DNA of 64,000 bases from Candidatus Rokuibacteriota bacterium (GTDB lineage Bacteria; Methylomirabilota; Methylomirabilia; Rokubacteriales; CSP1-6). Position numbers and translations under genes: made by a program. Location of the stretch: positions 51,249 through 115,248 of the forward strand of contig JAHFDN010000001.1 of NCBI GenBank assembly GCA_023248995.1, read 5' to 3'. Under the pieces are notes generated by a model. It was given only the letters and a program-made list of their open reading frames with translations. It made no database searches and had not been told where the DNA came from. Below, one piece after another: positions 17,100 through 60,127 of this stretch; position 1 is the first letter of the stretch, and each line of letters starts with the position of its first letter.

Positions 17100-17188
17100 T
17101 GGTGCCGAGGGGGGGATTCGAACCCCCACGGCCCGGTCGGGCCAGCGGATTTTAAGTCCGCGGCGTCTCCCAGTTCCGCCACCCCGGC
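17100..17188 (-). tRNA. tRNA-Leu(TAA)
   Basis: Cloverleaf with long variable arm, GACT-TAA-AATC anticodon loop, GTTCGAATC, encoded CCA. Confidence 0.96.
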
Positions 17189-17212
17189 GTGTACCCGCGA
17201 CGAGAGCTTGAA

Positions 17213-17288
17213 TGGAGGCGGCGAGCGGATTCGAACCGCTGAATAGAGGTTTTGCAGACCTCCGCCTTGGCCACTTGGCTACGCCGCC
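17213..17288 (-). tRNA. tRNA-Cys(GCA)
   Basis: GGCGGCGTAGCCAAGTGG...GTCT-GCA-AAAC...GTTCGAATCC...CCA. Confidence 0.96.
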
Positions 17289-17302
17289 GACCCGTTCAGA
17301 TC

Positions 17303-17377
17303 TGGAGCGGGAAACGGGATTTGAACCCGCGACCCCTACCTTGGCAAGGTAGTGCTCTGCCGCTGAGCTATTCCCGC
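17303..17377 (-). tRNA. tRNA-Gly(GCC)
   Basis: GCGGGAATAGCTCAG...CTT-GCC-AAG...GTTCAAATCCC...CCA. Confidence 0.96.
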
Positions 17378-32186: not shown

Positions 32187-32993
32187 TTAGCGCGCGCGAC
32201 GGACGGGCACGGCGGGTGCCCGGATGAGCGAGCGGGCCTGCCGGGCTGCTTCGGTGTCTGGGTACGCCTGGACGAGCTGCCGCCATGCCTCCCGGGCCCG
32301 CGTCGGATCGTTGAGGGCGCGGAAGCAGAGGCCGATCTTGAAGAGCGCGTCCGACGCTTTACCGCCCTGCGAATTCAACTCCACGACCCTCTGGTATTCC
32401 TTCAGCGCCTGCGCGTAGTCACGCTGCTCGTAGTAGGCCTGGCCGATCCAGAACTGCGCGTTGGCCACGAGCGGGTGCTCGGGAAAGCGCGCGATGAAAT
32501 CGGTGAACTCCAGCACCGCCTGCCCCTGCTGGTGGGCGCGAAAGTTCTCCAGCGCGGCCGCGTAGAGCTGCTCGGCCGGGCCTGCGCGCTGCGGCCGCTC
32601 CGGCTCCGCGGGCTTTACCGCGGACGTGGGACCGGTGGCCCGGCGGAGGAGCCCCTGGGAGAGCCCGTCGAGCGACCCGCGGATCCCCCGGACCGCTTCA
32701 TCGGTCTCCCCGAGCCGCGTCTCCAGCCGGTCCACCTTCTGCGCCGCCCCCTTTTCCGCTTCGGCCAGCGTGGTCATCTGGCCGTCGAGTCCTTTCAGGT
32801 CGGATACCGTCTTTGCGAGCTCGCGCGTGGTAGTCTCCTGCGCCTGTCTCAGCTCTTCCACCTGCTCCTTCACTTGAGCGATCTGAGCCCGCAACTCCTG
32901 GACGCTGCCGCGCGTGGCGCACCCCGCCACGGCCAGGAGGACCGCCGCGCTGCCGAACCAGACGGCCAGCGTCTCGGATGGAACGCGCTTCAT
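32187..32993 (-). CDS. Tol-Pal-associated CpoB/YbgF-like TPR lipoprotein
   Basis: Lipobox VAGC, coiled coil, TPRs (ANAQFWIGQAYY, DALFKIG). Confidence 0.85.
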   Translation of the reverse strand: MKRVPSETLAVWFGSAAVLLAVAGCATRGSVQELRAQIAQVKEQVEELRQAQETTTRELAKTVSDLKGLDGQMTTLAEAEKGAAQKVDRLETRLGETDEAVRGIRGSLDGLSQGLLRRATGPTSAVKPAEPERPQRAGPAEQLYAAALENFRAHQQGQAVLEFTDFIARFPEHPLVANAQFWIGQAYYEQRDYAQALKEYQRVVELNSQGGKASDALFKIGLCFRALNDPTRAREAWRQLVQAYPDTEAARQARSLIRAPAVPVRRAR

Positions 32994-33076
32994 CGCCAGG
33001 GCCCCTTTCGTCGGTGGTGGGAACGTAGCACAGCGTTTCAAAAAAAGTCAAGAAATTTAGGCTTCTTTTCGATAGG

Positions 33077-34081
33077 ATGCCCGTCGTGGACGAGGTGTCC
33101 TGGCCCTTCTACGTCTCGGCTGTGGCAACCGGGGTCGCGTTCGGCTACGTCACGCAGCGCGGCGGCTTTTGCCTCACCCGGGCTCTCTCGAACCTCTTCC
33201 TCATGGGCGACGCCACCATCGTGCGCGCCTATCTGCTCGCCCTGTTCGTCGCGACCGTCGGGGTCCACCTCATCCTGGGCGCGGGGCTGGTCCAGATCCC
33301 GATCCGCCCGTTTCACTGGCTCGGAAACCTCCTGGGTGGCTTCCTGTTCGGCGTCGGCATGATCCTCGCGGGCGGGTGCTCCGGCAGCACCTGGTACCGG
33401 GTCGGGGAGGGGGCGGTCGGCGCGTGGATCGTGCTCTTGGCATTCGCCATGGGTGCGACCACCACGAGCGTGGGGATTCTGGCCCCCGCGCGGCGAGCGC
33501 TTCAGGGTCCCACGGTGACGGTGGACGGTGTCTCTCCGACCCTGGCGAGCCTGATCGGGGTCTCGCCCTGGGCGGTCATCGGCGTCCTGGGTGTTCTGCT
33601 AGCGATCTTCCTCTGGCGAGGGAGCCCGGAGCCGGAGCACGCGAAGTGGCCGTGGGCCGTGACGGGAGTTGCCGTCGGCATGCTCATCGCCGTCGGCTGG
33701 TGGACCTCCAGCTTCGACCAGGCGCCCACGGGGATCACCTTCGCCAGCAACACCGGGCAGGCTCTCACGTACCCGCTCGTGGGCTATCCGAATCGCGTGA
33801 ACTGGAGCATGGTCCTCCTGGTGGGGGTTCCCATCGGGGCGTTCCTGGCGGCCTGGCGAGCGGGAGAGTTCCGGTGGAAGCTTCCGCCAGGCTGGAGCCT
33901 GGTCCAGCTCTTCGCCGGGGGGCTCCTCATGGGGACGGCTGCGATCCTCGCCGAGGGGTGCAACATCACCCAGGGGCTGACGCACTCGGCCACGCTCGCC
34001 CTCGGAAGCCTCGTGGCCTTCGGCGCCATGTGGGTCGGCGCCTACGCCGCCGTCTGGGTGATGTTCCTCAGAAAGGGCTAG
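33077..34081 (+). CDS. YeeE/YedE (TsuA-like) sulfur/thiosulfate transporter
   Basis: Multiple TM helices; three conserved Cys motifs RGGFC, AGGCSG, AEGCNI. True start may be GTG 33086. Confidence 0.9.
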   Translation: MPVVDEVSWPFYVSAVATGVAFGYVTQRGGFCLTRALSNLFLMGDATIVRAYLLALFVATVGVHLILGAGLVQIPIRPFHWLGNLLGGFLFGVGMILAGGCSGSTWYRVGEGAVGAWIVLLAFAMGATTTSVGILAPARRALQGPTVTVDGVSPTLASLIGVSPWAVIGVLGVLLAIFLWRGSPEPEHAKWPWAVTGVAVGMLIAVGWWTSSFDQAPTGITFASNTGQALTYPLVGYPNRVNWSMVLLVGVPIGAFLAAWRAGEFRWKLPPGWSLVQLFAGGLLMGTAAILAEGCNITQGLTHSATLALGSLVAFGAMWVGAYAAVWVMFLRKG

Positions 34082-34094
34082 CCGGCCGCCGCAC

Positions 34095-35063
34095 CTACCT
34101 CGCCGAGATCACGATCCCGTGAGGGTCGGACTCAGCGGTGAGCCCCACCTTGATTGTGTGGGTCTTGGTGTTCGTGGCGAGGTTGACCACGTCCACCGCG
34201 TGGGCACGGCGGCTGGTCACCCAGAGCTCCATCCCGTCGGGAGAGAGGTCAAGGATATCCGGGAGCTCTGAGACGGGAACCTTGGCCAGGACTTTCCGGC
34301 CGGGAACGTCCAGCACCGCCACGAAGTGCTCCTTTCGGACGGAGACGTAGGCGCGCTTGCCGTCCTTGGAAAGCACGATGCCGTGCGTGTCAGCGCCGAT
34401 TTTGATCTCGGCGACCACCTCGTCTTTCTTCGTATCGATCACCGAAACGATATTGTCGCCCCCCTCGGTAACCCAAACCTCGCCGCCTCCAGGGGCGGTC
34501 ACGGTCCCCATGGTGTCCTTACCCGCGAAGAGCTTCTTGATCACCTCGCCCGACGCCGTGGCAATCACGTAGACGTCGCCTGAACCACCGTTGGCGACGT
34601 AACCCTTCTTCCCGTCCGGGGTGAAGGTGACCAGCATGGGCTTGCTTCCCACCTTGATGGTGCGGACCACCTTTTGGCTGGCCAGATCGATGACCGACAC
34701 GGTGTCGGCCTGGACGTTGGCCGTCCAGAGCTGCTTCTCGTTGGGGGTCAACGTGACCCCGTGGGTCCCCTTGTCGGCGGGGATCACGGCCACTTCGGTC
34801 TTGGAGGCGGGATCGAAGACGGAGACCGAGCCGGACCCGACGTTGGCGGTGTAGAGCCACTTACCATCCTTGGTCAGGGCCGCGTTGTGGGGCTTGACTT
34901 GAGAGATCTTTACTGTCTCAATGACTTTTTTGGTCTTTCCGTCAATGATCGAGATAGAGTTCTCCCCCTGGTTCGTGACGTAGACCGTATAGGCCATTGC
35001 CGGCGCGACCACTGTCAGGGCGAGCAGGAAAGCGGTGAAAATAAAGAGAGAGCGTCGCAGCAT
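34095..35063 (-). CDS. Secreted YVTN-type 7-bladed beta-propeller
   Basis: Sec signal ending APAMA; seven repeats of P/T-x-G...S/TPDG..Y-V-x-N...VSVID. Confidence 0.9.
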   Translation of the reverse strand: MLRRSLFIFTAFLLALTVVAPAMAYTVYVTNQGENSISIIDGKTKKVIETVKISQVKPHNAALTKDGKWLYTANVGSGSVSVFDPASKTEVAVIPADKGTHGVTLTPNEKQLWTANVQADTVSVIDLASQKVVRTIKVGSKPMLVTFTPDGKKGYVANGGSGDVYVIATASGEVIKKLFAGKDTMGTVTAPGGGEVWVTEGGDNIVSVIDTKKDEVVAEIKIGADTHGIVLSKDGKRAYVSVRKEHFVAVLDVPGRKVLAKVPVSELPDILDLSPDGMELWVTSRRAHAVDVVNLATNTKTHTIKVGLTAESDPHGIVISAR

Positions 35064-35089
35064 GGACTTTCCTCCATCACGCGGCCGAG

Positions 35090-35857
35090 CTAGGCCGCAG
35101 GGTGAATAGCCTGGGCAGCCTCCCAACGCTGGCCCTGGCTGTTGATGAACACGATACGGAGTGTGCCTCCGCCGCTGATTTTCAACGGGAATCGGATCAA
35201 CGGGTTCGGGCTGACCGCCGAGGTCATCTGAAACTCGCTGATCTTCTGGTCGTCGAGGAAGACGAGCATCTGCCTGACGTAGAACTCGGGCTGCTCGCGG
35301 ACGAACTTTCCGCCCTGGAGGGCGAGGCCAGTGTAGGAGTTGTGGTCCAGCTTGGTCCGCACCTCCACCACCTCGCCTGCCCGGAGCGAGCGCGGCAGCC
35401 GGATCATCGGGTTTCCGAGACGCTCTCGCGCCATTTTCTCAGGGGCAGTCGTACAGCCGCCCTCTGCGACGCGGACCTCTCGGGCGCCCGTGAAGCGACC
35501 GTGGCGGGTGCACTCGCCTACGACCTTGACGACCCCGCCGATCCCGGAGCGGAAATGAAAAGCCACCCACGCCCGGCCGTTGGCCGGCGTAAAAAAGAAT
35601 TTTCCCTTGTAGGCGACGGGGTCCGTCTCCAGGCTCACCTCGAGCGACCGAATAAAATGGGCGGGCTCCATCGGATGGTCCATGGAGATCTGGAGGGGAA
35701 CGGCCACCGGATCCTCCGCCAGTACCGGGAGGTCGATCTGGGGCCGGTGGGCTGACTCCCCCTTTTCCTGCGCCCACGAGCCACGGGAAACCAGGGCCGG
35801 CGAGAGACCGGCGACGAGCGATCCGGCCATGAACTTCCTTCGGTTGAGAATTGTCAT
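35090..35857 (-). CDS. Tat-exported SoxY-SoxZ fusion with superoxide-reductase-like metal motifs
   Basis: NRRKF twin-arginine signal; LAEDPVAVP (SoxY), GGC arm, HNSYTGL and AVSPNPLIRF (SoxZ); HRP, HPMEPAHFI and CTRHG (SOR-like). Confidence 0.85.
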   Translation of the reverse strand: MTILNRRKFMAGSLVAGLSPALVSRGSWAQEKGESAHRPQIDLPVLAEDPVAVPLQISMDHPMEPAHFIRSLEVSLETDPVAYKGKFFFTPANGRAWVAFHFRSGIGGVVKVVGECTRHGRFTGAREVRVAEGGCTTAPEKMARERLGNPMIRLPRSLRAGEVVEVRTKLDHNSYTGLALQGGKFVREQPEFYVRQMLVFLDDQKISEFQMTSAVSPNPLIRFPLKISGGGTLRIVFINSQGQRWEAAQAIHPAA

Positions 35858-35876
35858 GTTTCCCGATCGGGAAACA
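35857..35876. promoter_or_regulatory. Perfect 20-bp palindromic operator or 5' hairpin
   Basis: TGTTTCCCGA|TCGGGAAACA between the -10 box and the ATG. Confidence 0.75.
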
Positions 35877-35904
35877 CTATAATGTGCCGGAACGATCCTG
35901 TCAA
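35876..35904 (-). promoter_or_regulatory. Sigma70 promoter of the SoxYZ-propeller operon
   Basis: TTGACA-17 nt-TATAGT. Confidence 0.8.
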
Positions 35905-37127
35905 GCCCCATCGTGCGGCGGCAGCGGCTTCAGGAGAATGACCGTGACCTCTCCCCCGGGGGGAATCGTGCTATCGGGAGGCACCACCGCGAGCCCGTCC
36001 GCCGCGACCATGGAGGTGACAATCGCCGATCCCTGGTCGCCGGTCAGCCGGGCGCCGTACCCCTGGCGATCCGCGGTGAGCCTCACGCGGAGATATCCCC
36101 GCCGCCCGCCCGGGTTCGGGATCGGCGCGAGAGCCCGGGCGCGGAGCATCGGGCGATGAAGTGCCGAGTGGCCGGCCATCTTCCGGAGGGCCGGTCGGAC
36201 GAAGAGCTCGAACGTCACCATGGCTGACACCGGGTTTCCGGGAAGCCCGAAGATCGGCCGGTCGCCCACGGAGCCGAAGGTGATGGGCTTGCCGGGACGC
36301 ATGGAGACCTTCCAGAGGTGCTGCTCCGCTCCGAGGCGGGTGAGCGCCTCTCGCACGAAGTCGTATTCCCCCACCGAGACGCCTGCCGAGGAGATCAGGG
36401 CGTCCGCGGCGAGCCCCCAGCGGAGTTGTTCCTCGATCGCCTCGCGGCGGTCCGGCGCCAGGCCCACGTTGACGGGTTCAGCGCCCGCCTCGAGGACCTG
36501 GGCCATCAGGGCGTAGGTGTTCGAGTTCCGGATTTTCCCAGGCCCGAGCGGCGTCCCGAGGTCTACCACTTCGTCTCCCGTCGAAAGGATCGCCACGCGG
36601 GGACGCCGGAAGACCAGCGGGCGCGACTGACCCAAGGTCGCCAGGAGCCCGACCTCGGCCGGGCCGATGACCTTCCCCGGCTCGAGCGCCGTCTCCCCCG
36701 CCCGGATGTCTTCGCCGAGCGGCCGGACGAAGACTCCGGGCTGGACGAATCGCCGAACGCGGATGCGCTCACCGAGCGTCTCGACCTCTTCCTGGGGAAC
36801 GACGCTGTCCGCTCCTTCGGGCAGCGGGGCCCCGGTGAAGATCCTGAATGCCTCGTCTCGCTCGAGCGGGCGGGCGGCGACCAACCCCGCCGGGATCGTT
36901 CCCACGACGCTCAGCTCGGTCGGCCGCTCGGGGGTCGCTCCACGCGTGTCGGACGAGCGCACGGCGTAGCCGTCCATGGACGAATTTGGCCACGGGGGGA
37001 TGTCCCCCGCGGCGACGGACGGCTCGGCGAGCACCCGCCCCAGGCACGCCAGGAGGTCTGTCCGTTCGGTGCCGAGCCGGTGGACGCGAGAGAGAATCTG
37101 CTCGAGGGCTTCTTCGACGGACAGCAC
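35901..37127 (-). CDS. moeA: Molybdopterin molybdenumtransferase
   Basis: SSMDGYAVRS, IFTGAPLPEGADSVV, STGDE, MRPGKP, GLPGNPVS. Confidence 0.96.
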   Translation of the reverse strand: MLSVEEALEQILSRVHRLGTERTDLLACLGRVLAEPSVAAGDIPPWPNSSMDGYAVRSSDTRGATPERPTELSVVGTIPAGLVAARPLERDEAFRIFTGAPLPEGADSVVPQEEVETLGERIRVRRFVQPGVFVRPLGEDIRAGETALEPGKVIGPAEVGLLATLGQSRPLVFRRPRVAILSTGDEVVDLGTPLGPGKIRNSNTYALMAQVLEAGAEPVNVGLAPDRREAIEEQLRWGLAADALISSAGVSVGEYDFVREALTRLGAEQHLWKVSMRPGKPITFGSVGDRPIFGLPGNPVSAMVTFELFVRPALRKMAGHSALHRPMLRARALAPIPNPGGRRGYLRVRLTADRQGYGARLTGDQGSAIVTSMVAADGLAVVPPDSTIPPGGEVTVILLKPLPPHDGA

Positions 37128-37160: not shown

Positions 37161-38279
37161 TCAGGCGTGAAGCCGGGCGAGAAACCAGTCGCGGCTCAGG
37201 ATGAACAGGGACAGGAAGCCGGCCGTGATGAGCATCTCGGTGAGACCGCTCGGAAAGGCGGCCCCCGCCGAGATGGATGGAACGACGAGCATCACCCGCT
37301 CCAGGAAGAGCGCCACGAGGCCCAGCAGGGTCACGAGGACCAAGGGGCCGTGCCGCTCCGGCGGCCGGCCGGTGAGCCGCTTCAGGAGGTAGACGAAGGG
37401 GAGCACCCACCCCACGACGAAGATCACGAAGGCGAGCAGCCGCCAGGGATCCACGAAGAATCTACGGAGAAAGAACTTGGTCTCGACGGGGACGTTCCCG
37501 TACCAGATGACCAGGTATTGCGACCAGAAGAAGTACATCCAGAGCGTGCTCGTGGCGAAGACCAGCTTGGCCACGTCCTGGACCGCGGCGGGGGGGATGG
37601 CGGCCAGCCCCGTGGCGTTGGCGCGCACGCTCAGAACGGCCAGGAGGGCGAAGCCGGCGTAGAGCGTGCTGACGACGAAGTACCCGCCGAAAAGCCCGCT
37701 GTACCACCGAGGGTCGAGGGACATGACGAGGTCGAAGCCGAAGAGCGACAGCACGACCACGTAGAGGAAAAGCACGGCGGTCGCCAGGGCGGCGCGCCGT
37801 CCCTTGTCTCGCCGCTCCGTCTCGGGGTCGGCCGTTCCTTGCCTGAAACCGGCGCGCACGAAGGCGAAGGTAAGCGCGTAGAGGACCAGGATCCCCACGC
37901 CGATGCGGGTGGCCATGAAGGGGACATTCAGCCAGGCCGCTTTGACCGGGATCGGGCTCGTCACCCACGGGTAGAGCGTGGCGCGGCCGCCGAAGAGAAT
38001 CAGGAAGAGGACGAACGAGACGGGGAGAAAGCCGGCCGTGGTCAGCGCGATCCGCTTGACGCCCGGCGACCAGCGGGCTTCCATGAGTTCCATCATCGCG
38101 GCGATCGCCGGCCCGGTCACCGCGAGCCCGGACCAGAAAACCAGGTTGATCAGGTAAATCGCCCAGGTCCGCTCGGCCGCCCGAGTCACCCCGAGGACAA
38201 ACGCAGCACCCCCGGCGAGGGCGATCGCCGCCAAGAAAAGCCGCGACCCCGGGGATAAGCGCTGTCCTCGGGCGATCAT
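37161..38279 (-). CDS. actF: Alternative complex III subunit F (NrfD-like membrane protein)
   Basis: KAAWLNVPF, DLVMSLDPRWYSGLFG, WMYFFWSQYLVIWYGNVPVE. Confidence 0.85.
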   Translation of the reverse strand: MIARGQRLSPGSRLFLAAIALAGGAAFVLGVTRAAERTWAIYLINLVFWSGLAVTGPAIAAMMELMEARWSPGVKRIALTTAGFLPVSFVLFLILFGGRATLYPWVTSPIPVKAAWLNVPFMATRIGVGILVLYALTFAFVRAGFRQGTADPETERRDKGRRAALATAVLFLYVVVLSLFGFDLVMSLDPRWYSGLFGGYFVVSTLYAGFALLAVLSVRANATGLAAIPPAAVQDVAKLVFATSTLWMYFFWSQYLVIWYGNVPVETKFFLRRFFVDPWRLLAFVIFVVGWVLPFVYLLKRLTGRPPERHGPLVLVTLLGLVALFLERVMLVVPSISAGAAFPSGLTEMLITAGFLSLFILSRDWFLARLHA

Positions 38280-38779
38280 TTGGCGGCGATGCTCCTCAGG
38301 TAATGCACGACGTCCCAGCGCTCCTCGGCGGACAGGGCTTCGCCGTAGGCGGGCATCACCGCTCCGCCGGTGCCGATGACGTGCTGGAGGTAGCCGTCGG
38401 TCCGCGCCTTCTGGATGGAGGGATGGGTGATGTCGGGAGGGGGGATGAACTTCGGCGAAACCAGCCCGTCTCCCTTCCCTCCGGCCCCGTGGCAGGGGGT
38501 GCAGTAGATCGCGAACAGAGCCTTGCCGCGCGCCACCGATTCGGGCGTGGCCTTGACGGGGTTCGGTCGCCGTGCGGCGAGATCCCGCGCTTCGCGCGGC
38601 GGCGTCAACTCGCCCCCGGAGCGCGGCAGGGTGCCGGCCGGCATCTCGAAGGTCCGCTCGCCGGGAACGATCTTGGGGGTACTGGTCATGTTGTCGGTCC
38701 AGCGCAGGACAATGACGCCTCCCATCAATCCCCCCGCCGCGAGGATCGTCAGGAGGACCAGGCCGAAGACGTACTTCAC
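38276..38779 (-). CDS. actE: Alternative complex III subunit E (monoheme cytochrome c)
   Basis: N-terminal TM helix, CTPCH, GDGLV, MPAYG. Confidence 0.88.
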   Translation of the reverse strand: MKYVFGLVLLTILAAGGLMGGVIVLRWTDNMTSTPKIVPGERTFEMPAGTLPRSGGELTPPREARDLAARRPNPVKATPESVARGKALFAIYCTPCHGAGGKGDGLVSPKFIPPPDITHPSIQKARTDGYLQHVIGTGGAVMPAYGEALSAEERWDVVHYLRSIAAK

Positions 38780-39282
38780 CGCCGCACCTCCTCCGCCCCC
38801 GCCTCCTGAAGGCATGTGCGGACGGCGGCGACCAGGTCCGGGGAACAGGTGACCGCGATCCCGAAGCGATCCACCGTGAAGCGCGGGTCATAGGTGGGCG
38901 AACGGCGGAGCGACGGGAGCTTCCCCAGCACCAGGATCGCCAGCAGTGAGGACAGGCCTCCCAGGAGAATCGTCAGCTCGAAGGCGATGATCACGAAGGG
39001 CGGGATCGAGACGATGGGCTTCGCGCCGGTGACCAGGCCCCACTTCAGCGAGGTCCAGATCGGGAGGGCGAATCCCGTCACGGTCCCCGTGAGCCCACCG
39101 ATGAGCGTGAACAAGCGGACGGGACTCACCGGTCGGCCTTCCTCCAACGCCGCCTCGATCTCTTCCACCGGGACCGGCAGATAGACGGAAAAGTCGGTGA
39201 ACCCCCGAGCCCGTAAGTCCCGGATCGCCCTGACGGTCGAATCCACGTGGGCAAAGATACCGAGGATGCAGGCGGCGGCCAT
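38776..39282 (-). CDS. actD: Alternative complex III subunit D (DUF3341)
   Basis: GAKPIVSIPPFVIIAFELTILL, YDPRFTVDRFGI. Confidence 0.88.
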   Translation of the reverse strand: MAAACILGIFAHVDSTVRAIRDLRARGFTDFSVYLPVPVEEIEAALEEGRPVSPVRLFTLIGGLTGTVTGFALPIWTSLKWGLVTGAKPIVSIPPFVIIAFELTILLGGLSSLLAILVLGKLPSLRRSPTYDPRFTVDRFGIAVTCSPDLVAAVRTCLQEAGAEEVRR

Positions 39283-45580: not shown

Positions 45581-46042
45581 TCAGAATCCCTTCAGCGTCA
45601 CGGGGAGAAACTCGCGCCGATCCTGGCTCCACGCGAACGCGGCCGCACCCGACAGCCTTCCGCCCAGAACCGAGACGACCACGTACGTCGCGTCGGGATA
45701 GATGGGCTCGCCCTGGAGGAGGGCGTTCTGCTTGTCGGTCTCCGAGAAGTATGCGCCCGCGTCGATGTGGGAGTGGTAGATCGTCCTCACCCGGTATCCT
45801 TCGCCTTCCAGGCGTCCAATCCGGAGAAGATCCTTCGGGTCGACCTGGTAGGCGACCCGCGCGTCGCGCGGGTGCCGGGACGGGTCCTTGATGTGGAGCT
45901 CGTTCTGAATGTTCCGGCAGGCGACCACGAGCCGATCGCCCGGCGCGCCGTTCCGCTCGAGCACGACGCCGCAGCATTCGGACGGGTATTCGGTCTCGGC
46001 TTGGGCGCGGATCCGCTCGAATTCCTCGCGGCCGAGGATCAT
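45581..46042 (-). CDS. JAMM/MPN+ metallopeptidase (Mec/CysO-cysteine peptidase-like)
   Basis: YPSECCG; [15 protein letters not shown] (HxH-x7-S-x2-D JAMM motif). Confidence 0.9.
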
Positions 46043-46317
46043 CGCCCTCCGGCCAGCGCCGGGATGATCGTCACCTCGTCGCCGTCCTTGAGCGGCGTCG
46101 CGAGGCCCTCGAGGGCGTCGATAGCCTCGCTGTTGACGTAGATGTTCACGTGAGCATGCACCTCGCCCCGATCGTTTCGCACCAGGCCCTTGAGCCCGCC
46201 GAACGTGTCCTCGAGCCGATCCAGGAGGCGGCCGACGTTCGGCGCCTCGACCTCGACCTTGTCTTTGTTGTTGGTCGCCCGTCGGAACGGGGTCGGAATG
46301 TACACCTGCACTGGCAT
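46039..46317 (-). CDS. MoaD/ThiS/CysO-type ubiquitin-like sulfur carrier
   Basis: [31 protein letters not shown]. Confidence 0.92.
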   Translation of the reverse strand: MPVQVYIPTPFRRATNNKDKVEVEAPNVGRLLDRLEDTFGGLKGLVRNDRGEVHAHVNIYVNSEAIDALEGLATPLKDGDEVTIIPALAGGR

Positions 46318-46351
46318 ACGCACGCCTCCTCGAAACGCCCCGGCCCTTTTT

Positions 46352-47296
46352 CTAGAACGTCAGGCTCAGGTAGCGCTCGCCCGTGTCGGGCAAGATGGTC
46401 ACGACGACCTGCTCGGGGTCGAGCCGCGCGGCCACCTGGCAGGCGGCAAACACGGCGGCGCCCGCCGATATTCCCACAAGCAGCCCTTCCTCGCGCGTCA
46501 GGCGTTTGGCCGTCGTGATGGCGTCCTCGTCCCGCACCTGGATGATCTCGTCGAGCACCTTGGGGTTCAGCACGCCCGGGACGAAGGAAGCCCCGATCCC
46601 CTGGATGGCGTGCGGGCGGCCCCTGCCGCCGGACAGAACGGGGGAGCGGGCCGGCTCCACGGCCACGATCTTGACGCCCGGCACCTTCTCCTTGAGCACC
46701 TCCCCGACCCCCGTGATGGTTCCCCCCGTCCCGACCCCGGCGACGAAGGCGTGGATCCGCCCCATGGTGGCGTCGAGAATCTCGAGCGCCGTCGTTCGCC
46801 GGTGGATCTCGGGGTTCGCCGGGTTCTCGAACTGCTGGGGCATGAAGTAGTCGGGATGCTCCCGGACGAGCTCCTGGGCGGCGTGCACGGCCCCGGTCAT
46901 CCCTTCGATCGCCGGCGTCAGGTGGAGCTCCGCGCCGAGTCGGGCCAGGAGCCGCTGGCGTTCCACGCTCATGTCGTCCGGCATGGTCAGGATCAGCCGG
47001 TACTGCCGCACCGCCGAAACGATCGCCAGGCCGATTCCGGTGTTGCCGCTGGTGGGCTCGACGATGGTGGACCCCGGCCTGAGCAGCCCGCGCCGCTCGG
47101 CGTCGTCGATCATGCTGACGGCGATGCGGTCCTTCACGCTTCCGCCCGGGTTGAGGGATTCGAGCTTCGCGAGCACGGTCGCGCCGCCCGGACTGGGCAG
47201 GCGGTTGAGTCGGACGAGCGGGGTACTGCCGACCAGCTCCAGCACGGACGCGGCGATCTTGGGGCGGTCCGTCGCTTCTCCTCGGCGTTGCGCCAT
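46352..47296 (-). CDS. cysK: Cysteine synthase A
   Basis: [53 protein letters not shown]. Confidence 0.95.
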
Positions 47297-47341
47297 GGCG
47301 CCCTTTCCTATCGAGGTGTCGTGGTTTGCCGGCAAAAAAAA

Positions 47342-47788
47342 TTAAATATGGTACATCGGCCGCGCGGCGCTCCGCCGCTGCTCGACCCGGCGACACAGGT
47401 CGGCGAACGAGATGCGGTCAACCACCCCGGAGACCGCCGCGGAGATCTCTCCCCAGAGGTCCTGGAGATCGCTGCTGTGGTCCGAGGCCCCACGCCGTGC
47501 GCCTCGCGGGCGCGCGTCCCCGCGCTCCAGGGAGCCTTCCATGGCACGGAGCACCGAGCCGACGGTGATCTCGTCCGGCGGCCGTATCAGGTGATAGCCG
47601 CCGGCCGAGCCGCGCTTCGACTGCAGGAAGCCCGCGCCCTTGAGCAGGAGCAGGACCTGCTCCAGATAGCGCTGCGGGATCGCCTGCCGCCCGGCGATAT
47701 CCTGAATCGGGATCAGCCCCGCGCCGTAGTGGAGGGCCAGATCCAGCATCGCCTTGATCGCGTATTCGCCCTTCGCCGAGATCCGCAT
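47342..47788 (-). CDS. Rrf2-family regulator lacking Fe-S cysteines (CymR-like)
   Basis: MRISAKGEYA, YLEQVL...SKRGSAGGY, C-terminal MYHI. Confidence 0.88.
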   Translation of the reverse strand: MRISAKGEYAIKAMLDLALHYGAGLIPIQDIAGRQAIPQRYLEQVLLLLKGAGFLQSKRGSAGGYHLIRPPDEITVGSVLRAMEGSLERGDARPRGARRGASDHSSDLQDLWGEISAAVSGVVDRISFADLCRRVEQRRSAARPMYHI

Positions 47789-54544: not shown

Positions 54545-55201
54545 TCAGCGGAAGCGCGCCTCTTCGACCCGGGCTAGGCTCTCGAGCTTGTGAACCCGCT
54601 CGTCGTACCCGATCTGACGGAAGAGATCCGCCAGCGACCCAAAGCGGCCGTAGTCGTCGGCGAACATGCTCTCGAAGGGCTCGGCCTCGAGTGCGGGATT
54701 CTCGGCCACGTACTCCATGTACTCGTGCTCGGCGTGATCCTCGAAGTGGGCGTTCAAGAGATAGCTCCGCGCCGGGCGGATGACATAGAGGAGCCACGAG
54801 ATGTGGTAGTAGATGAAGGCGATCACCTGGGGGAGGAGCCGGTACCAGGGGAAGTTTTCGTGGATGTGTTTTCTGTCCGTGAGCTCTTCCAGGATCAAGA
54901 GGTGCCACTGCTCGTTGTCCTGCTGGATCCGGCTCTCTTTGACCCGGTCGAAGATGCGTCGCGCCAAGTCGGGGTAGGCATGGGTATGGGTGATCGCAAT
55001 GTAGGCGACGTGCTCCCACGATTGGTAAGGCACTCGGGCAATAACCTCGAGAACCTTGAACTTGCTGAGGGTCTTACGACGGCCGTACAGCAGATCCATC
55101 CCGACGAAGAGGAGGCGGGCGAGCAGACCGTAGCGCATCCGGGGGGAGGCCAGAGTCTTCTCCTGCTCTAGCTTCAGCCGGTCTGAGGTCAACCGTTCCA
55201 T
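54545..55201 (-). CDS. Alternative oxidase / PTOX-like di-iron quinol oxidase
   Basis: FKVLEVIARVPY, NEQWHLLILEE, YLLNAHFEDHAEHEY, IGYDERVH: the E / ExxH / E / ExxH di-iron ligand set. Confidence 0.85.
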   Translation of the reverse strand: MERLTSDRLKLEQEKTLASPRMRYGLLARLLFVGMDLLYGRRKTLSKFKVLEVIARVPYQSWEHVAYIAITHTHAYPDLARRIFDRVKESRIQQDNEQWHLLILEELTDRKHIHENFPWYRLLPQVIAFIYYHISWLLYVIRPARSYLLNAHFEDHAEHEYMEYVAENPALEAEPFESMFADDYGRFGSLADLFRQIGYDERVHKLESLARVEEARFR

Positions 55202-55263: not shown

Positions 55264-56199
55264 TCAGGAGAGGACGACCTGCCCCGCGGCCATGATCACG
55301 TGCTTGACCAGCAAGCCACCCAGCAGGATCAGGACGGCGGAAATGGCCACGAGCCCCGGGCTCCCGCGCTGGCGCCGGATCACCTCCAGAACCAGTGGTA
55401 CGATCGATCCCACGACCACAGCCCCGAGCCAGAAGGTCATACTGTACGGGCCGCTGACGAGCAACGCCAGTGACTGCGCCGCACCCTCCGCGCCGGACAT
55501 CTCGACCGTCAGGAGAAATAGGGCCAGGGTCACGACCTGCAGCAACAGGGCGGGGATTGTGACCCACCGCATCTGGTTGAGGCTCCCTCCTGCTTCTCGG
55601 CCGAGGAACGACAGGATCAGGGCGATCGCCGCGGCCCCCGAGGTCGCGCCGACTGCCAGGAACAGGGCGCCCAGGAAGCGTCCGTTCTGGAAGAGGGGGC
55701 GGGCGGTTGCGCCGAGGAGCACGCCGGGGTAGGCCGCGAGGAAGAAGGCGAAGAATCCCCCGAGGACCCCTGCGGTGCTGCGGAGCGCCGAGAGGTCGCG
55801 CCCCGGCCCCGCATCCTCCAAAAATACCGACAGTGCCGCCAGCAAGGTGAACAGGCCGAATCCCGTGAGGGCCCAGGCCCCCATGTTCATCGGCGAAAAC
55901 GGCTTGATATGGATCGCCCCCAGGTTGATCGCATCCATGCCGATCGTGGTGTCGGGCTTGGCCACCATGAGCATGTGGAGGAAGCGGCTCGGTATCCCGA
56001 GGTCAACGGTCAGGAGGATCGGCGCGGGGATCAAGGCGATGAGGGCCAGGTAGTAGCCGACCCTGACCACTTCACGGTTCCGCTTGCCGCCCACCAGATG
56101 GGCGATCGTGGCGATCACAAACGCCCCGCCGGCGAGCCCGCCGAGGAAGAAATAGAAGTCGATCAGAAAGGGCCAGTCCGCGCTCTTGAGGAGGGGCAT
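55264..56199 (-). CDS. NrfD/PsrC-type membrane anchor of formate dehydrogenase
   Basis: YFFLGGLAGG, DLGIPSRF, SPMNMGAWAL, YPGVLL. Confidence 0.9.
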   Translation of the reverse strand: MPLLKSADWPFLIDFYFFLGGLAGGAFVIATIAHLVGGKRNREVVRVGYYLALIALIPAPILLTVDLGIPSRFLHMLMVAKPDTTIGMDAINLGAIHIKPFSPMNMGAWALTGFGLFTLLAALSVFLEDAGPGRDLSALRSTAGVLGGFFAFFLAAYPGVLLGATARPLFQNGRFLGALFLAVGATSGAAAIALILSFLGREAGGSLNQMRWVTIPALLLQVVTLALFLLTVEMSGAEGAAQSLALLVSGPYSMTFWLGAVVVGSIVPLVLEVIRRQRGSPGLVAISAVLILLGGLLVKHVIMAAGQVVLS

Positions 56200-56202
56200 C
56201 GG

Positions 56203-56970
56203 CTACTCCTTTCCGCCCCGCTCCCTGAAGGCCACCAGGGCGCCGACCCCCACCAGCAGGGCCGAGCCGATGGACAGGAGCGAGTCCACGAAGACGTTGT
56301 TCTGCGGGAGCCGAGGCTTCTCCGGCAGGCCGTACACGGACGGCCGGTCCAGGAGCAGGAAGAACGCGTTGAGGCCGCCCAGGGGACCGTTCTGGTCCTC
56401 GCCGTAGAGCTGGGCGTTCTTGAAGCCCATCTTCTTGAGATCCTCGACGCGCTTCCGGGCCCTGGCGGCCAGCTCGTCCCTGAAGCCGAAACTGATGGAC
56501 TGGGTGGGACAGGCTTTGGCGCAGGCCGGGCCCAGGCCGTTGTGGAGCCGGTCGTTGCAGAACGTGCACTTGTTGGCGCGACCGGTGTCGTGGTTGAACG
56601 CCACCACGCCGAAGGGGCAGGCCGAGACGCAGTACCGGCAGCCGTTACAGATGTCCTGGTTGATGTTGACGGTGCCGTACTGGGTCCGGTAGATGGCGCC
56701 GGTGGGACAGGCCTCGAGGCAGCCCGCCTGGGCGCAGTGTTTGCAGACGTCGGACATCAGGTGCCACATGAGGGCACCTTTGTCATCCTTCTTTTCGATG
56801 AAGCGCACGAGGCGGTAGCTCTTGTCGGTGAAGTGGGCATGGTTCTGGTATGTTCCGGTCCACTCCGGCTCCTCTGCCGGGAGCTGGTTCCACTGCTTGC
56901 AGGCAACCTGGCAGGCGCGACAGCCGATGCACAGGGAGACATCCGTGAACATCGCGACCGTGCGGGCCAT
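56203..56970 (-). CDS. Formate dehydrogenase Fe-S subunit
   Basis: CIGCRACQVACK, CKHC...CLEACP, CNGCRYCVSACP, KCTFC...CAKACP; C-terminal TM helix. Confidence 0.93.
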   Translation of the reverse strand: MARTVAMFTDVSLCIGCRACQVACKQWNQLPAEEPEWTGTYQNHAHFTDKSYRLVRFIEKKDDKGALMWHLMSDVCKHCAQAGCLEACPTGAIYRTQYGTVNINQDICNGCRYCVSACPFGVVAFNHDTGRANKCTFCNDRLHNGLGPACAKACPTQSISFGFRDELAARARKRVEDLKKMGFKNAQLYGEDQNGPLGGLNAFFLLLDRPSVYGLPEKPRLPQNNVFVDSLLSIGSALLVGVGALVAFRERGGKE

Positions 56971-56972
56971 GG

Positions 56973-59900
56973 CTATGCCACCCCCTTCCTGACGTTACAG
57001 AGGAGCGCTTTGGACTCCTGAATGAACGTCGTGGGGTCACCCAGGCTCGCCACGAGGTCGTTGGTGATGTCGCCGCGGGAGGAGGGCATGACGCCCTGGT
57101 ACCCCCAGTGCCAAGGGATCCCGACCTGGTAGACCTTCTTGCCATTGATGATGAACGGCTGGATCCGTTCAGTGACCATGGCGCGGACCTTGATCTTGCT
57201 CCGCGGGGTCTCCACGGTGATCATGTCGCCGTTGTTGATCCCCAGCTCCTTGGCCATCTCCGGGCCGATCTCAGCGAAGTGGCCGAAGAAGAGCTCGGAG
57301 AGCCAGGGCACGTGGCGCGACATGCCGGCCGCGTGGTGCTCCGTGAGCCGGTAGGTGGTCAAGACGTACGGGTACTTGTCGGGACCGCCGAGTCGGTTCA
57401 GATCGCCGATGTCCCATACCTTGGCGACCGGGTTGTGGTCAACCTTGGACAGGAGGTTCTTGGTCGGCGACTCGTATGGCTCGTAGTGCTCCGGGAAGGG
57501 CCCATCCAGTATGGACGCGAAGAACTGCCCCTTGCCGTGGGCGTTCATGATGAACGCGTCAATGCCGCTGATCCCCTTGAGCGGCCCCTCCTTTGCCCGC
57601 GGCGCGTCCGGGGCCATGACTAGGCCGAAGTCGGGCACATCCAGCCCAATCCACTTCTTCTGCTCCGCATCCCACCAGATGAGCTTCTTCTTCTCGCTCC
57701 AGGGCTTCCCCTTCGGGTCGGCGGAGGCGCGGTTATAGAGGATGCGGCGGTTGGCCGGCCAGGCGAAGCCCCAGCCGTGGGCCAGGTAGTCACCGTCCTT
57801 TGGCCGCTCGCGACGGGCGGCCAGGTTCTTCCCCTCCTCCGGGTAGATGCCGCCGTAGATCCAGTTGCCGCCTGCCGTCAGGCCGTCGTCCCTGAGCTGG
57901 ATGAAGCTCTTGAGGTGGTCCCCCTTCTTGAAAAGGACCTTGCCGTCCTTGTCGGTGATGTCGTCGGTCGCGTACCCGTTGATCTCCTTCAGCACCAGCT
58001 CCATCTTGGGCTCCTTCTTGGGCCCCTGGGGCTGGTAGTCCCAGACGAGATCGATGATCGGCCGATCCTTCTTGGCCTTCGAATCCTTGTAGAGCTCCTT
58101 TACACGGTTCCCCACGTCCACGATGAAGGCCGCGTCAGACCGGGCGTCGCCCGGCGGGTCAACGGCTTTCGTGTGCCACTGAGCCAGCCTCATCGTGTTG
58201 GTGATTGAGCCGTCCTTCTCGGCGGCGGGAGCGCCGGGGATAAAGAAAACCTCCGCCTTGGAGGACTTGGGGTCGATCCCCGGCTCCTTCCAGACTGCGG
58301 CGGTGTCGGTCTCGAAGAGATCCACCACCACCATCCACTCCAGGTTCCTGAGGGCCATTCGGGCCATCTTGGCGTTGGGGCTGTCCACGGCCGGGTTCTG
58401 GCCCATCACGATGAACCCCTTGACCTGCTTTTTCAGCATCCCCACCAGGAAGTGCTGATGGGAATACGCATCCGCCTTCTCCCGCTTGGGGAGATAGTCG
58501 TACGCGTAGTCGCTCTCCTTGCTTGCCGCGGGTCCCCACCAGGCCTTGAGCTGGCTGACGACAAACTTGGGATTGTTGACCCAGAAACCCCCCTTGGGCG
58601 TCGTCTTCTCCAGGTAATCCATGAGGGTCGGGTGCGGCGCCTGCAAGGGCATCGGCGGGTAGCCCGGGAGCATGTGGTAGAGAGTTCCGAAGTCGGTCGC
58701 CCCCTGGACGTTGGAGTGTCCGCGAAGGGCGACCACGCCCCCGCCGGGCCGTCCGATGTTCCCCAGAATGAGCTGGAGCATGCAGAGCGACCGGATCTGC
58801 TGGACACCGTTGGTGGACTGGTTGAGCTGAAGGGCGTAGGAGATCGTGGAAGTCTTGTCCGGCCCTGAAGCTGAACAGAAAATATCCGCCACCTTCAGGA
58901 ACAGGTCCTTGGGAATCCCGCACACCCGCTCCACCATCTCGGGGGTGTAGCGGCTGTAGTGGCGCCGCAGGAGCTGGAAGACGCAGCTCGGGTCGCGGAG
59001 CGTCGGATCCTGCTTGGGGTAGCCATCCGCGTCAAGCTGGAACTTCCAGGTGGTCTGGTCGTAGCTCCGCTTGGCCCGGTCGTAGCCCGTGAAAAGGCCG
59101 TTGAAGTCGGTCGGCGTCCTGAACTGCGGGTCCACCAGGAACGGGGCGTTCGTGTAGTTCACCACGTAATCGTGGAAGTACTTCTTGCTCTCAATGGCGT
59201 AGCGGATCAGCCCGCCGAAGTAGACGGTGTTAGTCCCGGAGCGGATGGGGACCCAGATATCGGCCGTGGCCGAAGTGCGAGTGAAGCGCGGATCCACGTG
59301 GATGATCTTGGCCCCTCGCTCCTTGGCTTTCATCACCCACTTGTAGCTCACCGGGTGACATTCGGCCCAGTTCGAAGTGGGCATGATCACGTCGGCGTTG
59401 ATGACGTCGATCAGGTTCGTGGTCATGGCCCCTCGGCCGAAGGTCGCGCCCAGGGCCGGCACCGTTGCCGAGTGGCAGACACGAGCTGAGTTCTCCACGT
59501 TGACGAGGCCCATGCCGCGGGCCAGCTTGGCGATGAGGTAGTTCTCCTCGTTGTCGAGGACGGAGGAGCCGAGCCAGGCGATCCCCTCGCAGCGGTTGAC
59601 CGTGACTTCCTTGTCGCCCACCTTTGCCTTTTCGACGAAGGTCTCGTCCCGGCTCTTTTTGACCCGCTGGGCGATCTGCTCCATCATCCAGTCAAGAGGC
59701 TTCTCCTCCCACTTGTCGCTCCCGGGGGCGCGGTACATGCACTTCGTCCAGCGCCGCTCGTTGATCGACACCTGGTAGGTAGACGAGCCCTTCGGGCAGA
59801 GTGCGCCCTCGGTGTGGGGCGTGTTCGGGTCGCCCTCGATATCTATAATCTTCCCGTCCTTGACGTAGATCAGCTGGGCGCACCCGACCGCGCAGTAAGG

Positions 59901-60050
59901 ACAGACTCCGGGAAACGCCTTGGCTTCCTTGATCCGGATTGTGGTGGCGAAGGATTCAACGGCGCTCAGGTCGAGCGTGCGCCCTCCGACCGCCACTCCG
60001 CCCGCCGTCGCAACGCCGTACCTCAGGAAATCACGACGTGAAAGGGCCAT
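56973..60050 (-). CDS. fdnG: Periplasmic Mo/W formate dehydrogenase alpha subunit (FdnG-type, Cys ligand)
   Basis: SRRDFL Tat signal, CPYCAVGC...LCPKG, SARVCHS, LRGHSNVQG, WPANRRILYNRAS, TTYRLTEH. Confidence 0.95.
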   Translation of the reverse strand: MALSRRDFLRYGVATAGGVAVGGRTLDLSAVESFATTIRIKEAKAFPGVCPYCAVGCAQLIYVKDGKIIDIEGDPNTPHTEGALCPKGSSTYQVSINERRWTKCMYRAPGSDKWEEKPLDWMMEQIAQRVKKSRDETFVEKAKVGDKEVTVNRCEGIAWLGSSVLDNEENYLIAKLARGMGLVNVENSARVCHSATVPALGATFGRGAMTTNLIDVINADVIMPTSNWAECHPVSYKWVMKAKERGAKIIHVDPRFTRTSATADIWVPIRSGTNTVYFGGLIRYAIESKKYFHDYVVNYTNAPFLVDPQFRTPTDFNGLFTGYDRAKRSYDQTTWKFQLDADGYPKQDPTLRDPSCVFQLLRRHYSRYTPEMVERVCGIPKDLFLKVADIFCSASGPDKTSTISYALQLNQSTNGVQQIRSLCMLQLILGNIGRPGGGVVALRGHSNVQGATDFGTLYHMLPGYPPMPLQAPHPTLMDYLEKTTPKGGFWVNNPKFVVSQLKAWWGPAASKESDYAYDYLPKREKADAYSHQHFLVGMLKKQVKGFIVMGQNPAVDSPNAKMARMALRNLEWMVVVDLFETDTAAVWKEPGIDPKSSKAEVFFIPGAPAAEKDGSITNTMRLAQWHTKAVDPPGDARSDAAFIVDVGNRVKELYKDSKAKKDRPIIDLVWDYQPQGPKKEPKMELVLKEINGYATDDITDKDGKVLFKKGDHLKSFIQLRDDGLTAGGNWIYGGIYPEEGKNLAARRERPKDGDYLAHGWGFAWPANRRILYNRASADPKGKPWSEKKKLIWWDAEQKKWIGLDVPDFGLVMAPDAPRAKEGPLKGISGIDAFIMNAHGKGQFFASILDGPFPEHYEPYESPTKNLLSKVDHNPVAKVWDIGDLNRLGGPDKYPYVLTTYRLTEHHAAGMSRHVPWLSELFFGHFAEIGPEMAKELGINNGDMITVETPRSKIKVRAMVTERIQPFIINGKKVYQVGIPWHWGYQGVMPSSRGDITNDLVASLGDPTTFIQESKALLCNVRKGVA

Positions 60051-60127
60051 CGTCGCACCTCCTGTGAGCCGTCTCCGCAAGACGACCTTGTGAGAAGTTT
60101 CTCGTGCATTCCTCCCAACTGCGCCTG

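Follow-up and report, generated by a model that had tools for sequence, protein, structure and literature searches.

A fused SoxYZ-type carrier with a superoxide reductase-type metal site, encoded with a beta-propeller beside a YeeE channel gene, as a candidate sulfur-carrier module in a Rokuibacteriota genome

What might a two-gene operon do when its first product fuses the sulfur carriers SoxY and SoxZ onto the metal ligands of a superoxide reductase (SOR), its second product is a secreted beta-propeller, and its end faces the gene of a YeeE-type membrane channel? This question is raised by a stretch of 64,000 nucleotides from the genome (2.34 Mb, 97% complete) of a groundwater bacterium, Candidatus Rokuibacteriota, hereafter the window, to which all positions refer unless a contig is named. 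The genes concerned are soxYZ (35090-35857, minus strand; 255 aa, with a twin-arginine or Tat signal), the propeller gene (34095-35063, minus strand; 322 aa) and yeeE (33077-34081, plus strand; 334 aa). We give even chances to the reading that the soxYZ-propeller operon, as a variant form of the Sox carriers, specifies a module that carries sulfur in the periplasm and is linked to YeeE. In different phyla, the carrier, the propeller and the YeeE family are repeatedly co-located with sulfur-oxidation and sulfur-transfer genes.

The nature of the carrier was established from sequence comparisons and a predicted structure. First, Pfam recognises on a single chain SoxY (PF13501, 55.2 bits, cut-off 28.4), SoxZ (PF08770, 59.9 bits) and Desulfoferrodox (PF01880, 39.0 bits, cut-off 22.2). 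Second, among solved structures compared by sequence, the N-terminal half aligns not to SoxY but to the SOR of Ignicoccus (4BK8, E=4e-5), whose iron site (centre II), made of four histidines and one cysteine, is matched one-to-one in the carrier, and the C-terminal half aligns to SoxZ (2OX5_Z, E=2e-5). Third, an alignment of 22 family sequences, numbered +1 relative to the protein starting at 35857, has the ligands H38, H62, H68, C117 and H120 invariant. An equally invariant Gly-Gly-Cys (GGC) arm, whose cysteine is C136, is located 16 residues past the last SOR ligand and runs via a linker into the SoxZ half, so that the GGCGG swinging arm of SoxY is not found; in relatives with separate soxY and soxZ genes, SoxY ends exactly with GGC followed by the stop codon (15 loci). 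The AlphaFold2 (AF2) model of the carrier (pLDDT 80) consists of two confident beta-sandwich domains, and the low-confidence stretch between them (pLDDT 56-60) begins at GGC. Foldseek searches with this model retrieved SoxYZ chains (TMt 0.80-0.83) and the SOR 4BRV (TMt 0.69). The SoxY fold (PF13501), the Tat signal with its RRKF motif and the SoxZ partner are thus all present, and on this sequence and model evidence we identify the protein as a SoxY-type carrier built on an SOR-type metal domain, the mononuclear metal of which is probably Fe.

At the same time, the carrier falls under every curated NCBIfam cut-off. The best model is TIGR04557 (96.7 bits against 140), followed from a distance by those for SoxZ (TIGR04490, 46.4 against 76), true GGCGG SoxY (TIGR04488, 34.0 against 125) and superoxide reductase (TIGR00332, 17.2 against 61.9). 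The family is nevertheless not a singleton: 373 proteins were found at E<=1e-5, the best 120 of which all contain the three Pfam domains, and those with names are proteins from metagenome-assembled genomes of Rokubacteria/Methylomirabilota. When the N-terminal domain was compared with a library of 1.84 billion representatives, 228 clusters were obtained at E<=1e-3, grading from SOR-type into canonical SoxY. A scan of the phylum at E<=1e-20 gave matches in 99 of 251 genomes, a figure that overstates the family, since canonical soxY and soxZ genes joined by reading across a stop codon are caught as well; a fused orthologue with at least 48% identity occurs in about 46 genomes (a tally that includes the unpublished genomes G081, G221 and G222, which enter no other result). 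In a tree of 56 rows, 41 SOR-type rows fall on one side of a branch with 100/100 support, this being one split of an unrooted tree whose rows were cut out by pattern, with the genome's canonical SoxY and true SORs outside it. Three loci of genus g68, from the same class (L089, L090, L093), encode a fused SoxYZ with Tyr at the first His ligand, which retains the HPM..H and C..H ligands and the GGC arm.

The gene neighbourhoods of these relatives were surveyed by scanning one genome per species, which yielded 57 loci, of which 43 are SOR-type by pattern (another, L023, with HAM for HPM, is SOR-type by eye and stands outside the 43). SOR-type loci span Methylomirabilota, Nitrospirota, Gammaproteobacteria and SAR324. 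A YeeE/YedE-family gene is present in 23 of the 43 and a propeller in 19, with both together in 13; other recurrent neighbours are SoxB-like (11/43) and thioredoxin-like genes (DsbH/DUF255, 11/43), DUF302 (8/43), SCO1 (8/43, all gammaproteobacterial) and FccB (6/43). The YeeE adjacency is not confined to this genome, which would have spoken against the original prediction, but extends to at least three phyla and two YeeE architectures, and the sulfur theme of the original prediction is reinforced by FccAB, SoxB-like, thioredoxin-like and TusA neighbours.

Three arrangements can be distinguished. First, in Methylomirabilota the order is ACIII (alternative complex III), moeA, soxYZ, a variable slot, convergent yeeE and cpoB, where the slot holds the propeller, or FccB with a dihaem cytochrome c, or nothing; other families of this phylum have the soxYZ-propeller pair with the same residue ring described below (adjacent in L092, 2.8 kb apart in L090). 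Second, Gammaproteobacteria (Arenicellales, Poriferihabitaceae and others) and SAR324 have a co-directional operon, namely, (TusA)-YeeE-propeller-SOR-type SoxY-SoxB-like-SoxZ-cytochrome c-DUF302-SCO1-thioredoxin-like, with TusA immediately upstream of YeeE in L038 and L047. Third, Nitrospirota show two forms, SOR-type SoxY-SoxZ-cytochrome c-propeller (L033, Nitrospiraceae) and YeeE followed by SOR-type SoxY-SoxZ (L034 and L046, the latter with a thioredoxin-like gene in between). YeeE is TsuA-like in Methylomirabilota and Nitrospirota, and YedE/FdhT-like in Gammaproteobacteria and SAR324, with permuted order in the gammaproteobacterial relatives; with two architectures involved, the link to the SOR-type carrier arose more than once. 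Among five gammaproteobacterial genomes with the operon, SoxA exceeds its cut-off in one and canonical SoxY likewise in one, the SOR-type protein being the sole SoxY-like match in the other four; DsrA is found in all five.

These data allow the carrier to be placed between two known systems. With SoxYZ of Paracoccus pantotrophus (2OX5, 2OXG) it shares the two-domain Ig-like architecture, a Gly-Gly arm whose Cys ends the SoxY domain, the Tat signal, the SoxZ partner and sulfur-oxidation neighbours. Unlike SoxYZ, its halves are fused, its arm is GGC and not GGCGG, it has five SOR-type metal ligands, it scores below the SoxY and SoxZ cut-offs, and it occurs without SoxA in 4/5 of the gammaproteobacterial genomes. 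With SOR/neelaredoxin centre II (Ignicoccus hospitalis, 4BK8/4BRV) it shares a homologous domain and all His4Cys ligands; unlike SOR, it has a Cys arm at the C-terminus, is joined to or paired with SoxZ, and occurs in a sulfur gene context.

The second likeness invites an alternative that we judge improbable, namely, that the fusion is a periplasmic superoxide reductase ('TAT-SOR') that detoxifies superoxide from the respiratory chain, with cytochrome c or ACIII as electron donor; the propeller and SoxZ half would then be scaffolds or partners, and the YeeE adjacency synteny without function. A complete and invariant His4Cys set, aligned to solved SORs, fits superoxide reduction equally well, which counts against a role in sulfur transfer. 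The Desulfoferrodox match above its cut-off, the position of the locus directly downstream of ACIII and the closest propeller paralogue, which adjoins a periplasmic Cu,Zn superoxide dismutase, point the same way. So does the Tat signal, which the carrier has in common with the TAT-SOR class of SORGOdb, a likeness drawn from the description of this class in the available part of the paper, where it was proposed bioinformatically and named in 2011 from seven sequences, without a link to Sox (PMC3116461). Armless extracytoplasmic SOR repeats also exist, as in P0262, a lipoprotein-like protein of 396 aa in which three SOR-type domains follow one another and the cysteine arm is missing; therefore, extracytoplasmic SOR-like domains also occur without this SoxY feature. 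However, superoxide reduction leaves unexplained the invariant GGC arm, which is the C-terminus itself in the stand-alone forms, the obligatory SoxZ partner, and the SoxB-like, FccAB, thioredoxin-like, TusA and YeeE neighbours, and the TIGR00332 score is far below its cut-off. Most SORs also have a Lys ahead of the first His, which is missing from the carrier, but the Ignicoccus enzyme is active without this residue.

The second protein of the operon contains seven YVTN repeats (TIGR02276, 181 bits), and its AF2 model is a propeller of seven blades (pLDDT 93.6). Foldseek returned as best match the archaeal YVTN domain 1L0Q (TMq 0.88), and also hydrazine synthase beta and NosZ (5I5J, TMq 0.82), that is, a fold but no functional assignment; the clusters of the ESM Atlas bear only the generic names 'lactonase/YncE/PQQ-dependent', and the L-NosZ model gives 86 bits. 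Residues H59, H101, M143, M185, H227, D269 and H315 form a ring, as deduced from their 42-residue periodicity and their position at the start of each blade's innermost strand, and are invariant, except for M143, in 8 sequences down to 38% identity. We take this His/Met ring to be a metal site, probably for copper. The N2O reductase CuZ domain and thiocyanate dehydrogenase are metal-centre beta-propellers, and the window propeller resembles them in its seven blades and in the His residues of its innermost strands; unlike them, it has another ligand pattern, and it shares no family membership with either.

A paralogous propeller from the same genome is 28% identical and has a partly matching ring, ending M-H-D-H. 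It is encoded in an operon (G000:C5:6000-14000) ordered CopC, CopD-cytochrome c fusion, CusF-like, propeller and periplasmic Cu,Zn superoxide dismutase, which suggests that its subfamily handles copper. In a further paralogue (G000:C44:31962-33245), a YVTN propeller that has His or Met at several ring positions is fused at its N-terminus to a c-type cytochrome motif (CxxCH). By contrast, the propeller encoded beside the genome's PQQ methanol dehydrogenases on contig C10 has Arg, Glu, Val and Trp at the ring positions; since the ring is absent from this PQQ-linked propeller, it is specific to the subfamily.

From the same observations, the pair could be read as a periplasmic module for handling copper or another soft metal, in which Cu(I) is bound and passed on by the ring-bearing propeller and the His4Cys/GGC domain, with the sulfur genes linked indirectly or not at all. 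That M-H-D-H of the ring recurs in the nearest paralogue, within a copper operon, counts against the sulfur-carrier reading, and the subfamily-specific ring, SCO1/SenC in the eight gammaproteobacterial loci, a CusF-redoxin fusion after the soxYZ paralogue of L020 and a MerR-family regulator flanking L011 all suit a copper module. Nevertheless, the homologues of the carrier domain are SoxY and SOR and not known copper chaperones, the links to SoxB-like, FccAB, TusA and YeeE genes would have no explanation, and export by the Tat route suggests cytoplasmic loading of the cofactor, which is unusual for copper. Moreover, copper may be merely the cofactor of a sulfur-oxidising propeller, in which case the proposal folds into the sulfur-carrier reading. 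We regard a copper module, too, as improbable.

A different partner for the pair is suggested by TIGR04557 (PP_2677) and TIGR03866 (PedA2, PP_2669), likewise a fused SoxYZ and a YVTN propeller, whose roles in connection with PQQ are described as still unassigned in the portion of the literature at hand (PMC12997753). These are the best NCBIfam models for the two proteins, with 188.9 bits for the propeller against a cut-off of 287.3, and the genome encodes two PQQ dehydrogenases and pqqE, so the pair might be an accessory set serving methanol or alcohol dehydrogenases. Yet, unlike the PedA2 set, both window proteins stay under their cut-offs with no PQQ dehydrogenase nearby, and the genome's canonical SoxY scores equally well on TIGR04557 (96.3 bits). 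None of the 57 loci contains a PQQ dehydrogenase, and the PQQ cluster, which is on another contig, C10, owns its separate, ringless propeller. Based on the sub-cut-off scores, the 0/57 count and the propeller of C10, an accessory role was rejected; it is largely refuted and, in our estimation, very improbable. This agrees with the original prediction, which had named a consistent partnership with PQQ alcohol dehydrogenases as the observation that would speak against it.

The third protein, YeeE, matches Sulf_transp (PF04143) over its full length (232.6 bits) and aligns, again over its full length, to YeeE of Spirochaeta thermophila (6LEO, a thiosulfate channel; E=5.6e-38). As originally predicted, it keeps all three cysteine motifs, C22, C91 and C293 of 6LEO each having a Cys counterpart; the equivalent residues are essential in SoxT1B, as reported in the accessible part of PMC11582611. 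It is, thus, a full-length homologue (about 330 aa, three Cys) of the YeeE/TsuA importer and of SoxT1A/SoxT1B of Hyphomicrobium denitrificans. YeeE-like SoxT proteins were implicated in 2024 in moving carrier-bound sulfane across the membrane, in a model, as given in the same part of that source, where SoxYZ-bound sulfane enters through SoxT (PMC11582611); as in this model, the window YeeE adjoins a periplasmic SoxYZ-type carrier. Unlike TsuA and SoxT, however, it is convergent, remains under the cut-offs of the TsuA equivalog models (184.6 bits against 400, 156.4 against 645), and has no tsuB/tusA, soxS or soxR adjacent to it in the window; likewise, an ArsR/SoxR or SoxS gene was not observed beside it. 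The system may work like SoxYZ with SoxT/YeeE; its proteins match at the level of Pfam and fold, while the curated models for SoxY, SoxZ, SOR, TIGR04557, TIGR03866 and TsuA all remain below cut-off. Apart from the gene at 33077-34081, the genome encodes no full-length member of the family. A second YeeE-family locus (G000:C56:7735-8801) is split into two parts of half size whose order is permuted (PmpA/PmpB-like), and its second match contains one TGA.

Whether carrier and propeller form a complex was explored by co-folding. The pair obtained 0.47 against 0.19 for the best control, its runs share at least 86% of contacts, and partner pLDDT is at least 92. The mark used is reached by 58/80 solved complexes and by 2/110 mismatches, and scores that pass it at no more than 0.60 include just 7/80 solved complexes but both passing mismatches; the co-fold is thus weak support for a complex.

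Several observations weigh against a sulfur-carrier module linked to YeeE, in addition to those already given for superoxide and copper. First, within the locus, yeeE lies outside the operon and, being convergent, is not co-transcribed with it, no TusA-like gene (TsuB/YeeD) stands beside it, and the co-fold score just described is low. Second, 14/43 SOR-type loci have neither YeeE nor a propeller; in several of them a contig end truncates the locus, but five (L016, L019-L022) have both flanks intact, with unrelated neighbours and neither partner. Third, an intact YeeE gene persists beside a soxYZ fragment in L040, and a partial one (142 aa matched) beside a decayed soxYZ in L053, so part of the adjacency in Methylomirabilota is inherited synteny. 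Fourth, the genome was searched for sox, dsr, sHdr and pqq genes, of which SoxXA, SoxB, SoxY, SoxZ and PQQ genes are present: contig C41 encodes canonical SoxY (TIGR04488, 129.7 bits), SoxZ, a SoxXA fusion and SoxB, all above curated cut-offs. DsrA is absent from the genome (best 38 bits against a cut-off of 393), and no sHdr-like operon was recognised among its CCG-domain genes (9 matches in 5 ORFs), although this was not exhaustive; of the two inspected closely, one is GlcF-like and accompanied by GlcD/E, and the other is a small CCG protein with a cupin as neighbour. Its single TusA gene is distant (C5:1015-1248), next to a cysteine desulfurase.

The original prediction is thus supported in part: the carrier, the propeller and YeeE recur together, while two components of the interpretation fare less well. 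Independence of Sox enzymes does not apply to this genome, with its canonical set on C41, and fits the gammaproteobacterial relatives better, where four of five genomes lack SoxA. As for selenium, offered as an alternative cargo, nothing was found in its support: no selenium genes were seen, and the best model for the gammaproteobacterial YeeE, the YedE/FdhT selenium family, reaches 145 bits against a cut-off of 350.

Under the sulfur-carrier reading, the following sequence of events can be envisaged, in which metals, substrate and hand-off to YeeE are all inferred. The carrier metal, probably Fe, would bind or oxidise a reduced sulfur compound (for instance, sulfide, polysulfide or thiosulfate) and, in the role of SoxXA, help to load sulfur on the arm cysteine, where it would form a persulfide or thiosulfonate. 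The propeller, whose His/Met ring probably binds copper, would act on the carrier or jointly with it; it may be an oxidase or a transferase, or may connect the flow of electrons to cytochrome c and ACIII. Sulfane sulfur would then be released, perhaps via the thioredoxin-like protein where this is present, a step proposed for SoxT systems in the part of the work available (PMC11582611), and would enter the cytoplasm through YeeE as a three-cysteine channel of the TsuA/SoxT type. In this genome, which is without Dsr, it may be destined for assimilation or for the thiolation of cofactors (cysK-cysO-mec, TusA-cysteine desulfurase, molybdopterin); the gammaproteobacterial relatives may instead pass it to TusA and rDsr for energy.

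In the classical Sox system, the haem protein SoxXA attaches sulfur to the carrier. It is tempting to speculate that the SOR-type carrier loads itself, the Fe(His4Cys) site beside the arm replacing SoxXA together with a copper propeller and cytochrome c, but we consider this doubtful. If true, it would mean a Sox-like pathway independent of haem SoxXA in marine Gammaproteobacteria (sponge-associated ones included), SAR324, Nitrospirota and Methylomirabilota, with a YeeE-family channel and TusA routing sulfane sulfur inward; and SoxY and superoxide reductase would be of common origin, with the SOR-type SoxY family as a living intermediate. The SOR-type family is a candidate for two poorly understood steps, namely, sulfur attachment without SoxXA and membrane crossing of carrier-bound sulfane, in widespread uncultured groups (groundwater and soil Methylomirabilota, marine Arenicellales, sponge-associated Gammaproteobacteria and SAR324), a capacity that standard marker surveys for soxA or canonical soxY would overlook. 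It also connects SOR and SoxY, two protein families handled separately so far. Literature searches by term found no published description of an SOR-type SoxYZ family with a propeller; likewise, term searches of the accessible parts of papers on SoxY diversity (PMC11237559) and Sox evolution (PMC13500833) found no mention of superoxide, desulfoferrodoxin or propeller.

How the two genes are expressed was examined on the DNA itself, and here the original prediction proved accurate, save for one start codon. The listed soxYZ reading frame (35090-35911, minus strand) had been taken to start at 35911; the likely start is the ATG at 35857, because the twin-arginine motif is there (MTILNRRKF). For the propeller, listed as 34095-35126 (minus strand), the likely start is the ATG at 35063, because a Sec-type signal is found there (MLRRSLF...AMA/Y). 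Given the 26-nt spacing between the genes, and GGAGG ahead of the second ATG, soxYZ and the propeller gene make up an operon, whose stop is separated from that of yeeE by the predicted 13 bp (34082-34094). The operon has, as anticipated, its own promoter and putative operator: a sigma-70-type promoter on the minus strand, TTGACA-17-TATAGT (35876-35904, 11/12 consensus positions), and a perfect 18-bp palindrome, GTTTCCCGATCGGGAAAC (35858-35875), read from the sequence, which is the candidate operator. Scanning 32800-36300 gave this one promoter site against 0.3 +/- 0.6 in shuffled sequence. The -35 hexamer overlaps the stop codon of moeA, and the palindrome fills the stretch between the -10 hexamer and the soxYZ ATG, which it abuts; there is no second copy of its 16-nt core in the 2.34-Mb genome.

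Promoter and palindrome are identical in relative L004 and nearly so in L006, where the palindrome differs at 2 positions; in L005, L009, L012, L013 and L030, TTGACA is found, followed by a different palindrome. Six loci (L011, L012, L025, L027, L028, L030) have another palindrome type (CCATTGTC.ATGG / ATTG.C.AT.GG) after the -10, even at paralogous loci. This suggests that the soxYZ operator is dedicated but has diverged among relatives. In L007, L008 and L010 the soxYZ ATG overlaps the moeA stop, and soxYZ therefore has no promoter of its own there. Composition also sets the operon apart, with a G+C of 0.60-0.64 across 34000-36000 against 0.66-0.71 in the flanks, and a third-position G+C of 0.79-0.81 in both genes against 0.85-0.92 for neighbouring genes. 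Low G+C, together with the variable content of the slot in relatives, hints that the genes are a cassette acquired or exchanged separately.

Contigs assembled from RNA libraries, which carry no expression level, strand or transcript ends, include three pieces with exact matches covering 34000-34812, from a sample that is possibly the source of the DNA, and a contig of another study (686 nt, about 94% identical) that bridges the soxYZ/propeller junction. Contigs of the same-sample run match neither soxYZ nor most of yeeE, which carries no weight in either direction. The matching contigs are a weak hint of soxYZ-propeller transcription.

The remaining surroundings are as had been described. Upstream of soxYZ lie moeA (35901-37127, minus strand) and, further upstream, the ACIII genes; the cysK-cysO-mec module predicted about 10 kb away corresponds to cysK / ThiS-like / JAB genes at 45581-47335, adjoined by an Rrf2 regulator (47342-47788). 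The open reading frame of the last ACIII gene (37161-38891, minus strand; 576 aa) overlaps, in another frame, an actE-like cytochrome c gene (38276-38815), and the gene probably starts near 38300; neither Pfam nor NCBIfam recognises its product, which is 50-79% identical to that of the gene in the ActF position of relatives.

On contig C41, the soxY-soxZ-soxXA(fusion)-soxB genes are preceded by a molybdopterin oxidoreductase pair (C41:2014-10386, L069) that resembles TtrB/DsrO fused to an NrfD-like part, plus PhsA, both under their cut-offs. The genome has, in addition, two genes of the sulfite oxidase family. Elsewhere in the window, a formate dehydrogenase locus (55264-60080, minus strand) encodes an alpha subunit of the formate dehydrogenase-N type (TIGR01553, 1171 bits, cut-off 814), along with a beta subunit and a membrane subunit similar to NrfD, and adjoins a gene for a 218-aa protein (54545-55201) with a weak Pfam match to alternative oxidase (AOX). 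Finally, three consecutive tRNA genes are found at 17103-17377 on the minus strand (Rfam RF00005, 53-70 bits).

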